Of a stretch of DNA of 28,060 nucleotides, positions 17,678 through 23,256 are shown in pieces. A program made the translations under genes and the position numbers. The notes below the pieces were generated by a model. The model was given only the letters and a program-made list of their open reading frames with translations, did no database searches and was not told the origin of the DNA. The stretch covers positions 1 through 28,060 of IMG/VR virus record IMGVR_UViG_3300027586_000038; one strand, written 5' to 3'. This DNA comes from a virus (Duplodnaviria > Caudoviricetes). Position 1 is the stretch's first letter. Each line of letters starts with the position of its first letter.

Positions 17678-19085
17678 CGCCGCAACGGCTAAGGAGTTCA
17701 TGGCACGCCCTGAGCTTGACAGGCTGGCGCACATCAAGCACTTGGAGTGGGTCGCAAATGCCCACCCCTATCAGATCCCCCCTGACCTTGAGCAGGACTA
17801 CACCGTGTGGCTCCTCCTCGCTGGGCGTGGAGCCGGCAAGAGCCACGCTGGGAGCCATGCCCTGTGGTGGTGGTGCTGGACGCACCCCAACAGCCGCGGG
17901 CTCGTCCTAGCCCCCACCAGTTCGGACGTCAAGTTCACCTGCTTCGAGGGAGTGTCAGGCTTGCTTGCCAACATACCCCGAGAGCTTGTAGTCAACTACA
18001 ACAAGCAGGATCACGTGATTGAGCTTGCCAATGGCTCGACTATCAGGGGCATCAGCGCTGACTCGTATGAGCGCCTGCGCGGCCCCCAGTTCCACTTTGC
18101 ATGGTGTGATGAGCTTGCCGCCTTCCAGTATTTGGAGGACGCGTGGAACATGATGATGTTCGGCCTGCGCCTTGGCGAACGCCCAAGGGTGATAGCCACA
18201 ACAACGCCCAAGCCTAAGGACTTGATCCTTGACCTAGTGGGGCGAGAGGGTGACGACGTGGTGGTTGACCGCGCCAGCACCTACGCCAACATGGCCAACC
18301 TAGCACCGAGCTTTGCCAACCAACTTGAGCAGTACAGGGGCACCAAGCTCTTTGAGCAGGAGGTCATGGGCTCCTTGGTTGACCTCGAGGATGGCAAGGT
18401 GGTCAACCGCTCCATGTTCAAGCTATGGCCTGCTTTCACCACCGACGGGCACCCTAACCCGTTTCCTGACTTTGAGTTCATTGTCATGTCGCTAGACTGT
18501 GCGTTCAGTGAGAAGACCCACAACGACCCTACCGCCTGCACCGTGTGGGGCGTATTCAAGCCGCTGGACGCCCCTATGTCTGTCCTGCTCATTGACGCAT
18601 GGGCTGAGCACCTGAGCTTCCCTGACCTGAAGCCTAGGGTTATAGAGGAGTTCTACACCAGCTATGGTGAGGGCAAGAAGGCGAAGAAGCCTGACTTGAT
18701 GATCATTGAGGACAAGGCGGCAGGCATCAGTCTTATACAAGAGCTAGCCCGTGCGGGGTTACCGTGCAGGGCGTACAACCCGGGTCGCGCTGACAAGATG
18801 CAACGCCTACAGATCTCTGCCGCCATCATTGCCGCTGGGCGTGTGTGGCTCCCCGAGAGCGAGAGCCGCCCCAACATGGTCAAGTCATGGGCAGAGGGCT
18901 TCCTGTCTCAGATCTGCTCCTTTCCTGACTCAGCGCATGATGACTATGTGGACACCACCACTCAGGTACTCCGCATCCTGAAGGACATGAGTTGGCTCGA
19001 CATTGACCCACCTCCTCTGTATGATGACGACGACGACTACGTTGACTACATCAAACCTAAGAGGGTGAACCCCTATGCCGCCTAA
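17661..19085 (+). CDS. terL: Terminase large subunit
   Basis: Walker A LAGRGAGKS, Walker B FAWCDE, TTTP, nuclease motifs SLDCA and HDDYVD. Confidence 0.95.
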   Translation: MLDLLDAATAKEFMARPELDRLAHIKHLEWVANAHPYQIPPDLEQDYTVWLLLAGRGAGKSHAGSHALWWWCWTHPNSRGLVLAPTSSDVKFTCFEGVSGLLANIPRELVVNYNKQDHVIELANGSTIRGISADSYERLRGPQFHFAWCDELAAFQYLEDAWNMMMFGLRLGERPRVIATTTPKPKDLILDLVGREGDDVVVDRASTYANMANLAPSFANQLEQYRGTKLFEQEVMGSLVDLEDGKVVNRSMFKLWPAFTTDGHPNPFPDFEFIVMSLDCAFSEKTHNDPTACTVWGVFKPLDAPMSVLLIDAWAEHLSFPDLKPRVIEEFYTSYGEGKKAKKPDLMIIEDKAAGISLIQELARAGLPCRAYNPGRADKMQRLQISAAIIAAGRVWLPESESRPNMVKSWAEGFLSQICSFPDSAHDDYVDTTTQVLRILKDMSWLDIDPPPLYDDDDDYVDYIKPKRVNPYAA

Positions 19086-22000: not shown

Positions 22001-23256
22001 GTGAAGGGGCGGCATCTGACGCCATAGTAAAGGCGGCTCAATCCGCTGGTATGAATGCGCCTGTAACCGCTAATAAACCGCTAACCACGGTGCAAGACTT
22101 CCACACATCAATTGGCGATGAGGTGCGCCGTCGATCCATTGATGCCAAGAAAGAAATGGACGCCTTCAACTACAAGTACGACAAAGGCCAGCGCGTGTTC
22201 ACTGAGGACAGCGCCAAGAAAAACAAAGCGCCTTACGAGGTCATTGAACGCTACCGTCACGGCAATAACCTGATGTGGGAAGGTGAGCCTTGGACAAGCA
22301 AGAAGATCATCGACCCTGAGACTGGTAAGGCTAAGCGCACGCCTTATGAGCCGGGGTACCGTGTTCGCGGCGAGATTGGCGAAATGATCTTGCCTGAGTC
22401 AGCCATCAAGGGCAACGTAGACATGGCCCGTGGCGGTCTTGCGCACATGGCTAAGGGTGGAAGGAGCGTCCGAGGCGCCAAGAAGGTCATGTCACTGGCT
22501 GACGAAGTGCGTGCAGAGATGGCGGCAGAGAAGCTTGCCGCACCCCCAGCCAACGTAAAGGTGGAGCCCGCATACCCTTACCAAGATAGGCTCAACAAGG
22601 TCAAGCCAGTCTACGGTGCACGCAAGATCTTGCCCCGCGAACAGGCTGACGCAAACAAAGCCGCGTTCTTAGAGCCAAGCGTGGTCAAGGATCGCTTGTA
22701 CCACGGCACCAAGCGCAACTTCACAAGGTTTTCTCCTACAACCGCTGATTCAATTTTTTTGACGCCCGATCCTACATTTGCGTCAGGCTTTGCTCAAGGG
22801 TCATTGGAATTCAAAGATCCATACAGTCAGGTAACGATTGGCAGATTTAGCACGCCAAACGCAAAATTTAAAGAGCCTGAGGAGCAAGTAGACAACGCCA
22901 ACATATTGCCAGTGCGTGTGCAAGTTAGGAACCCATTTGATTATGAAAACGCAGAACACATTGACGCTTTGCGTGACTGGGTGGTAAAAAACACAGGCAT
23001 GCCCAAAGACCGTGTTGACCGTGAGTTGCAAGTCATGTCTGACCCTGATAATTCTAACAATTGGGCTCCGATGGAGAATCCTTATTTCCAAAGAGGTATC
23101 AAGGCGCTTGGACACGATGCCTACTACACCAAAGAGCTTGACACCAAAAACCTCGGTGTCTACAACCCCAACGTTGTAAAGTCCGACATTGGCAACATTG
23201 GCACGTACAGCACCAAAACACCTGAAATTACTGAGAAGAAAGGCGGCTTAGTGTGA
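19075..23256 (+). CDS. Large polyvalent protein (PcfJ-like and ADP-ribosyltransferase-like modules, repeated GG linkers)
   Basis: ESDVMGHSVRGY/YSLRD/TIEV/QVKGKQN (PcfJ-like); LYHGT/IFLT/PVRVQVRNP/VKSDIGNIGTY (ART-PolyVal-like); three SLADxVRAEM repeats. Confidence 0.8.
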   Translation: MPPKLNPLEAIKQSRGVKAVGSLADQVRAEMQAEKAYKAGVHYADPNVAPTMKFSEALGITGSEGKTLNFTETDRSRVKGENKGGFGFSGLQHYSKPHKDANAVWGFGSEDIAKRKIKNSNPEKDVFTTYIGSPDQHKSNSIVVRDALKNVQAANQQNLIDPAQINLINKRIRAARSKTGTLLFSPDFDVTDAQAMNAATTFDRRSAISNALMGVGVQGSMKKLDFKKANPNVEYKDPAQMDTILRRESEPMLEGLPNYSVGPRLFTLDGGLLYRPDLNFAFPNQPTGTDMGVMFEMPTIQEAAPQFMKKKGYKPTDTVNARAMSMGAPSQFVDEAYLTYLQKIGRKKGGLATMGKGGVMRGIKKLKGIYGEVETSMGRDKGAQFEQIASPLNIIKETGGNWSPSGEMVYKSRLDQELDKLQKHTNYPKSQHLKRMLQDAIARGDAREVAVFTENLRDAIGIEAANNWVKSNLKNYITKQMATKDDPVRKLAEQGITAFPKNVDEYGDLELRNYGSPQARLNRSNTNNVKAGVAQSPLAKHYETMTDESINPTPAKEYQRIQALPKMQRPTGTIDAPWMSKLDPDTPIFSLSRDADFDKLGFTHMMDVLREDVAAGRLRPEKLSTITVEQAVRRAHEYDETLKANMLNARIAEQANANVFKEYPEGYRWVQLDQPGQFTLESDVMGHSVRGYEPPKGHPDYSDISGDSGRSTYGHGGYDAIKSGKAKVYSLRDPKGQSHVTIEVGRLDKHPIGYGMSGKEEFPKDFRYEQGSITPEQHQQIYQRAKQLFNPQSTQDLSQHRMDVFQQAADDVIGKPPEQITQVKGKQNAAPNESYQPYVQDFVKSGNWSDVGDLDNTGLKKVGNKYLNDSEFTEAAKKYGRAGERMDTPWEVSRQRHLDAGISEDEALKNWVEAFKEGRGRFDIPAEGMARGGLSYMGKGGVPKGAKKIMSLADQVRAEMAMEKAGAKAPKRLFSGEGAASDAIVKAAQSAGMNAPVTANKPLTTVQDFHTSIGDEVRRRSIDAKKEMDAFNYKYDKGQRVFTEDSAKKNKAPYEVIERYRHGNNLMWEGEPWTSKKIIDPETGKAKRTPYEPGYRVRGEIGEMILPESAIKGNVDMARGGLAHMAKGGRSVRGAKKVMSLADEVRAEMAAEKLAAPPANVKVEPAYPYQDRLNKVKPVYGARKILPREQADANKAAFLEPSVVKDRLYHGTKRNFTRFSPTTADSIFLTPDPTFASGFAQGSLEFKDPYSQVTIGRFSTPNAKFKEPEEQVDNANILPVRVQVRNPFDYENAEHIDALRDWVVKNTGMPKDRVDRELQVMSDPDNSNNWAPMENPYFQRGIKALGHDAYYTKELDTKNLGVYNPNVVKSDIGNIGTYSTKTPEITEKKGGLV

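Follow-up and report, generated by a model that had tools for sequence, protein, structure and literature searches.

Introduction

Phage polyvalent proteins are large multidomain proteins of phages with terminase and portal genes, with ART-PolyVal among their domains, for which packaging, processing and injection have been proposed (Iyer et al., 2017; PMC5512222); one polyvalent protein has been detected in phi24B virions (10.64898/2026.04.10.717836). Better defined is the head cargo of T4, with its capsid-targeting sequence (CTS) and protease gp21, along with the substrates of phiKZ gp175 and SPN3US gp245, where a short motif in redundant copies is common to scaffold or core proteins and ejected proteins and where variable cargo follows a common leader (PMC9026906; PMC10052503). 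In T4 and phiKZ a single protease motif serves scaffold, core and ejected proteins (PMC9026906), some sites are redundant or terminal (PMC9026906; PMC10052503), and T4 Alt is cleaved at each end (PMC9026906); in T4, phiKZ and SPN3US cleavage takes place after Glu (L/I-x-E, A-x-E) and extends to capsid and portal, the phages have a gene for a serine prohead protease, and the cargo comes from separate genes. In this article, I will discuss a locus that resembles both systems. It lies in a 28,060-nucleotide stretch of a tailed-phage genome (IMG/VR record IMGVR_UViG_3300027586_000038, positions 1 to 28,060; "the window" is this whole stretch), where a gene for a 1393-residue protein (19075-23256) follows the terminase genes and encodes four modules separated by linkers with a double-glycine (GG) motif, and comparison with related phages shows that such modules are swapped between them at the GG linkers.

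The likeness to polyvalent proteins goes some way: the chains carry at least two unrelated globular domains each, one of these (ART-PolyVal) belongs to the polyvalent repertoire, and the gene stands among head genes, as a reading of the DNA made without database searches (the sequence-only reading) had supposed and as matches to ART-PolyVal and PcfJ now support. The differences are that no MPTase domain (HExxH; common in polyvalent proteins, not required), MuF domain or assemblin domain was found here, and that a single peptide motif recurs at the joints between modules. The words "linker", "glycine" and "PcfJ" are absent from the main text of PMC5512222, and I found no description of the GG motif or of linker-bounded shuffling in the open-access literature; swappable cassettes jointed by a GG motif appear to be new and to extend the polyvalent proteins, with the proviso that the supplements of PMC5512222 may list such proteins.

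Compared with the T4, phiKZ and SPN3US substrates, the motif is likewise present in proteins that position and composition mark as probable scaffold, core and ejection proteins, whereas removable N-terminal motif segments of capsid and portal are missing, the motif is GG, the portal is unmarked, no protease is recognisable and the cargo is fused in shuffled polyproteins. For want of a recognisable protease and a marked portal the locus fails as a member of that class, although a protease of some unfamiliar family may be present. A third likeness is to the C-terminal region of tape-measure proteins (lambda gpH; PDB 8zdo and 8rk3), in which [FY]AxGG stands beside a G-x-G-x-G-x-S-D...GE[FY] segment, with the gpH cut nearby, although these are tail proteins of long-tailed phages without modular cargo. 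African swine fever virus pp220 and pp62 and the adenovirus substrates are core precursors cut at GG-type sites during assembly, in eukaryotic viruses and by a known cysteine protease; no such cysteine protease was found here, and the likeness does not imply homology.

Cassettes exchanged at the linkers

The best 80 of 149 stretches found with the portal and the best 80 of 260 found with the terminase large subunit (terL) gave 158 loci, of which 86, some of them on a shared contig, span the interval from terL end to portal start. An open reading frame (ORF) of 834-2362 residues lies in that interval in 85 of the 86 (locus L009 has 476 residues instead), and removal of 12 near-identical entries from 70 distinct proteins with 400 or more residues left 58 non-redundant cargo proteins. 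A strict form of the motif, [FMY][AKQDE]xGG or [KR][KRA][KRDENHQ]GG, occurs 277 times in these against 27 in shuffled sequences, with a conserved hydrophobic residue three positions before GG. Internal ends of BLAST alignments between the proteins fall within 25 residues of the motif in 1633 of 2976 cases where 440 were expected, while they are depleted near other GG sites (628 against 964 expected). Cutting at a slightly looser motif divides the 58 proteins into 187 segments, about 35 module families and 47 orders, a few cuts being false or missed; family F13, assigned with F4 to module 2, proved to be an artefact of a false cut at YGHGG inside that module.

Three things weigh against taking these figures at face value: the strict pattern was picked after the GG contexts of the relatives had been seen, the families were initially defined by cutting at the motif, and the compared protein pairs are non-independent. 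With profiles trimmed of their linkers, a test that is partly circular and uses non-independent pairs, the strict motif stands at 97 of 107 module junctions and the loose one at 103, compared with 1.1% and 13.9% of same-length windows inside modules.

Individual pairs of phages tell the same story. Locus L001 has a portal 99% identical to that of the window, and terL and portal DNA that are 95% identical, but its modules 1 and 2 are only 27-33% identical and module 3 is replaced; DNA identity ends just past the N-terminal leader, reappears as islands at linker 1 (residues 349-395) and linker 2 (residues 937-961), with one weak island inside module 2, and is picked up again at linker 3, from its GG onward (residue 1120). 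In locus L004, module 1 and most of module 2 are common with the window and divergence sets in after the linker-2 leader. Module 1 identity is uncorrelated with portal identity (rho 0.04 over 435 pairs, against 0.48 for the terL control), and where portals are at least 90% identical module 1 falls below 50% in 26 of 43 pairs. The whole architecture is common to only 4 of 89 close pairs, a count that the redundancy filter and missed cuts both depress, and each of the four modules has several different neighbours in relatives. BLAST ends, junction profiles and the L001 and L004 swaps thus agree on plug-in modules exchanged at linkers, which the sequence-only reading had proposed; the domain boundaries of homologues, checked for whether they ignore the linkers, do not.

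The linkers and their leaders

Position and length of the ORF, the three linkers of GG-x6-GG form and a terminal KKGGLV are as that reading had placed them. Linker 1 (RKKGGLATMGKGG, residues 346/347, 20110-20148) is the island of DNA identity with L001 mentioned above; linker 2 (MARGGLSYMGKGG, residue 929, 21859-21897) and linker 3 (MARGGLAHMAKGG, residue 1117, 22423-22461) each continue into a leader, SLADQVRAEM and SLADEVRAEM respectively, so that linker and leader together span 21859-21954 and 22423-22521; the chain ends in EKKGGLV and the stop codon (23233-23256). The linkers had been called related, and this holds for the GG part, linker 1 having no SLAD part. Neither the three GG-x6-GG pairs nor a 10-residue repeat with at most one mismatch was reproduced in any of 1000 shuffles of the protein.

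Linkers 2 and 3 encode identical residues with different codons at 8 of 10 positions in the GG part and 10 of 14 in the SLAD part, and their nucleotide differences at first, second and third codon positions number 4/1/9 and 4/1/12, bearing out the synonymous divergence noticed earlier; it is the peptide and not the DNA that has been kept between these paralogous copies. As such divergence would lead one to expect, the linkers were missed by an ungapped DNA repeat search of the window. The linkers might in principle be flexible spacers and recombination joints only, short conserved DNA permitting exchange while the peptide meets neither ligand nor protease, and indeed orthologous linkers are islands of 83-88% identical DNA between phages with differing flanking payloads; but paralogous copies within one gene differ at most synonymous sites with the peptide kept, the hydrophobic residue before GG is conserved, and the motif occurs also in genes that are not shuffled (predicted scaffold, ejection genes and a repeat protein, below), all of which make this account highly improbable.

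SLADxVRAEM itself stands at residues 22, 951 and 1140, the first copy (19138-19167) lying in an N-terminal leader of residues 1-44 (19075-19206) that is modelled with low confidence and is specific to the clade. The decapeptide had been taken for a tag for capsid loading or ejection. It occurs 12 times in 5 of the 58 cargo proteins, all with a terL at least 76% identical to that of the window, and precedes four different payload families; with so narrow a range among close relatives it is better seen as the form that a copied N-terminal leader takes in one clade than as a universal tag. Across the whole set, the N-terminus of the leader's own protein scores in the top tenth for 37% of 138 leaders. 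The 20 residues after linkers are also more basic than module interiors (charge of at least +2 in 47% against 18%) and slightly more amphipathic.

The motif in the rest of the phage

The motif is not confined to the cargo. Counts of the [MFY][AK]xGG type in five near-complete (90-100%) relatives gave 16 in the cargo protein (2.9 expected), 49 in a basic repeat protein encoded after the capsid gene (2.7 expected), 18 in the first predicted ejection gene (1.9 expected) and 8 in the second (0.8 expected), with all other ORFs at chance (13 against 10.9) and none in portal, terL, terS, cement or adaptor; the 304-residue capsid protein has one conserved internal YQQGG only. The motif-bearing set also takes in small basic ORFs. 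A 56-residue basic ORF after the portal gene of the window (27681-27851), below the 60-residue limit of the ORF list, ends in KKSGGLST.

The repeat protein (L002:15343-16425 and homologues) begins MGQFKPMVKM, is basic and of low complexity, and has 300-460 residues and 14-23 GG; it matched no family, and 38 of the 42 loci whose downstream DNA reaches far enough have it, the four misses being distant GenBank phages. It is a candidate internal core or DNA-condensing protein. The predicted scaffold, encoded after GroES (L002:11214-12197 and homologues), carries [MLI][AV]xGGx[VI][DN] in 51 of 66 sequences; among the remaining 15, 7 read DGGA upstream where others read DGSA, no sequence has both, and the upstream DGGA may possibly compensate for the missing motif in these few lineages. 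That GroES co-chaperonin (L002:10783-11217) stands in the head module of all relatives examined.

Both predicted ejection genes precede the transglycosylase gene. The window holds the C-terminal part of the first (50-784), with MADGG, KAQGG and MRQGG and a domain related to tape-measure C-termini, and the second (784-1761), with AAEGG near its C-terminus; across relatives the motif of the second lies within the last 90 residues in 39 of 49. The AlphaFold model of the ejection-protein C-terminal domain is poor, with a predicted local distance difference test score (pLDDT) of 57 and below 50 at the motifs. In the relative G004 a beta-ketoacyl synthase gene (L165:3149-4144) lies in the virion module just upstream of the predicted ejection genes.

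Relatives found in GenBank by their portal include Caulobacter phage RW, Roseobacter phage CRP-901, Pelagibacter phage HTVC023P and the metagenome-assembled DSL-LC04. Between terL and portal DSL-LC04 has a single PcfJ-like module with three N-terminal motifs and HTVC023P a basic protein of 201 residues with the motif near its end; in RW a distal virion gene is the only one to carry it. Two of these motif carriers, RW (RW_GP066c, with NMARGG and, at its C-terminus, YMDGG) and HTVC023P (gp30 and gp32), are in culture. The annotation of RW splits its terL (L174:2445-5247) into two around a methyltransferase gene, and a tRNA-Val takes the position of its relatives' cargo gene.

Proposed cutting or docking of head cargo

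Since the motif recurs on several proteins predicted to lie inside the head, it probably directs the cutting or the loading of head cargo. I tentatively favour, as a near-even call, that [MFY][AK]xGG is a maturation signal at which the predicted cargo is cut into separate proteins. Under this scheme, scaffold, core and ejection proteins bearing the motif would occupy the prohead, the cargo would be loaded together with them through its linkers and basic leader, a cut at or beside GG by a protease of some unrecognised kind would free modules 1 to 4, and the pieces would accompany the DNA into the cell and have an early role there, module 4 as an ADP-ribosyltransferase; linker DNA specific to each position would provide crossover points between phages. 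It would operate like CTS and gp21 of T4, with another motif and without a recognisable prohead protease. The distribution of the motif, its presence at nearly every junction and the cut close to it in gpH count for cutting, while virion location, cleavage and effector activity are all predictions from sequence.

Considerable evidence weighs against this scheme. A head protease had been named as the cutter, and none is recognisable among 73 ORFs of the complete relative G002 compared with Pfam and 30 compared with PHROGs (one 715-residue low-complexity ORF was left out), where the only peptidase match was an M15 endolysin, nor among 37 ORFs of the window compared with Pfam and PHROGs. The window protein has no HExxH peptidase motif, and GHEGRH, in 8 of the 58, is the only one among the cargo proteins. 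The portal has no motif and the capsid only its one internal copy; capsids of related architecture, such as those of Pam1 and phi24B, are reported to be uncleaved (10.64898/2026.04.10.717836). In at least 21 of the 58 cargo proteins a motif lies within 32 residues of the C-terminus, where a cut would free little, in the clade to which the window belongs the motif site of the scaffold has become IQATGSVD, and the extra head-region genes of the distant cultured relative CRP-901 show no clear motif by eye.

Other protease candidates were considered. Two of five genomes encode, away from the head module, proteins of about 255 residues with HExxH (FHELAH, FHEIAH; L168:6935-7702, L171:7651-8421); these were not seen in the other three and are therefore unlikely to be a general cutter. 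An unannotated 179-residue head-module protein (L002:12210-12749), conserved out to HTVC023P and CRP-901, was rejected because distant homologues do not conserve His60 and Cys108; searches of PDB, Pfam, NCBIfam and Atlas gave it no name, and the linker-2 peptide, modelled in complex with this protein and two capsid subunits, scored 0.00, which is no answer and is not used as evidence for or against.

The lack of a recognisable protease in G002 suits another explanation, doubtful but serious, in which the motif is a binding tag that docks on the inner prohead surface (coat, portal or scaffold/core), the polyprotein is ejected whole and the modules brought their tags along at fusion. Such a tag would fit the copies at extreme C-termini, the tandem copies (spacing 8 in 24 cases), the single-module proteins P0015 and P0037 (if complete) with terminal copies and that of DSL-LC04 with three copies kept ahead of its PcfJ-like module, and the repeat protein with its many GG. 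One or two tags per chain should be enough, yet 97 of 107 junctions keep the motif; a maturation protease produces a like distribution in T4 and phiKZ (PMC9026906), and the tag is without an identified binding partner. That the motif acts instead at ejection, as a signal for channel entry or unfolding or as a host-protease site in periplasm or cytoplasm, draws on the lack of a recognisable phage protease, the basic and slightly amphipathic 20-residue stretches after linkers and the occurrence of the motif in tape-measure C-terminal regions, which lead ejection, but is very unlikely given that 51 of 66 predicted scaffolds carry it although scaffold should leave the head before ejection, and that lambda gpH is cut in tail assembly (PMC12617516).

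Tape-measure proteins and lambda gpH

The link from maturation cutting to the tape-measure proteins begins with the ejection-gene ORF at 50-784, which matches tape-measure C-termini (phrog_6090, E 1.4e-6; PDB 8zdo, E 2.2e-5); [FY]AxGG begins the segment common to the ejection-protein end and tape-measure proteins, and a search with a profile of this C-terminal part brings up 14,966 clusters with E-values no higher than 0.001. Lambda gpH (L178:143-2704) has FATGG at 733, YATGG at 778 and MRDGG at 842, within its cleaved C-terminal region. The protein loses about 14 kDa from this glycine-rich region, with site and enzyme stated in 2025 to be unknown (PMC12617516), and a cut after residue 738 would yield 80.2 and about 12 kDa, making FATGG 733-737 a concrete candidate for the cleavage site. 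Because the direct comparison of the ejection-protein profile with gpH is weak (probability 7%), the link stays a lead; for JBD30 the published speculation concerns a cut at 1066 and not at FASGG (PMC11445458). I regard it as unlikely, though worth stating, that [MFY]AxGG is an old and hitherto overlooked virion-maturation code of these podoviruses and of long-tailed-phage tape-measure proteins, read by some protease, that marks the gpH cut (which would fall at FATGG 733-737 or immediately ahead of it) and has here been turned into plug-and-play loading and freeing of dozens of uncharacterised anti-host modules.

The modules

Five segments of the window protein and 87 of the 187 segments were scanned against Pfam. 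Four effectors had been proposed, and an effector role is suggested, as a prediction, for module 4 alone, while modules 1 and 3 have no assigned activity. Module 4 (family F3, 22522-23232, YHGT at residue 1209) is an ART-PolyVal-like ADP-ribosyltransferase domain: the window copy scores 29.2 bits (E 1.8e-6), under the cut-off of 31.2, whereas the 85% identical copy in L001 scores 31.3 and all four sampled F3 relatives reach the cut-off. Module 2 (families F4 and F13, 20149-21858) is PcfJ-like through its relatives, three of four sampled F4 members passing the PcfJ cut-off (PF14284, E 1e-9 to 1e-10); the window copy had no PcfJ match in the Pfam scan and is 27% identical to the PcfJ-like protein of DSL-LC04.

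Module 1 (family F1, residues 45-345, 19207-20109) is predicted to fold as one domain (mean pLDDT 82). Its model gave no Foldseek match in PDB, and its matches in a viral structure library are other phage proteins, mostly uncharacterised; comparisons with EVE (1wmm; VIA Z 6.7, root-mean-square deviation 3.4, 128 aligned) and YTH (VIA Z 6.0) fall below the level of 8, leaving an EVE/YTH (PUA-like) fold as a weak lead from the model. This lead lends some interest to a TET-associated glycosyltransferase gene in the window (10107-11051; PF20691, E 1.7e-42), which suggests DNA base modification. Module 3 (family F9, 21955-22422) has no family or structure match (best Atlas score 0.78) and looks SH3-like by eye only. 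Profiles of modules 2, 3 and 4 gave no credible PDB sequence match.

Further cargo families in Pfam include GDSL esterases, DUF7178 and additional ART-like domains, and most families have no match in Pfam, PHROGs or NCBIfam. GDSL esterase/lipase cassettes are found at L052:6537-7565, L060:8453-9436 and L065:5849-6949. The motif supplies a sequence rule by which abundant, unannotated giant phage proteins divide into about 35 module families, the majority of them lacking a profile match, and so provides a list of candidate injected anti-defence proteins; the cassette locus also shows how giant phage proteins get reshuffled. Should the motif prove to signal loading or cutting, it would be a second natural capsid-cargo code beside the CTS of T4, in a head type thought to be protease-free.

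Genomic surroundings

The cargo genes are flanked on the left by terL (17661-19085, terminase match in Pfam and PHROGs) and on the right by the portal gene (25204-27678, phrog_1216), neither with a GG motif, and these genes, the cargo genes with their modules and linkers, and the ejection genes all lie on the plus strand. The large ORF between terminase and portal was correctly recognised before; a second cargo gene there (23253-24998, 581 residues, family F2) had been omitted. It has MKNGG, MMQGG and FDNGG at its start, and family F2 is fused into the large protein in 15 of 20 members. In the complete relative G002 no DNA polymerase or integrase was seen, and a host lead from two short contigs of metagenome-assembled genomes (an Opitutae bin and a betaproteobacterial bin) is not trusted. 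Elsewhere in the window two tandem DUF1376 genes (8548-8880 and 8950-9705) follow a Cro/YdaS-like repressor.

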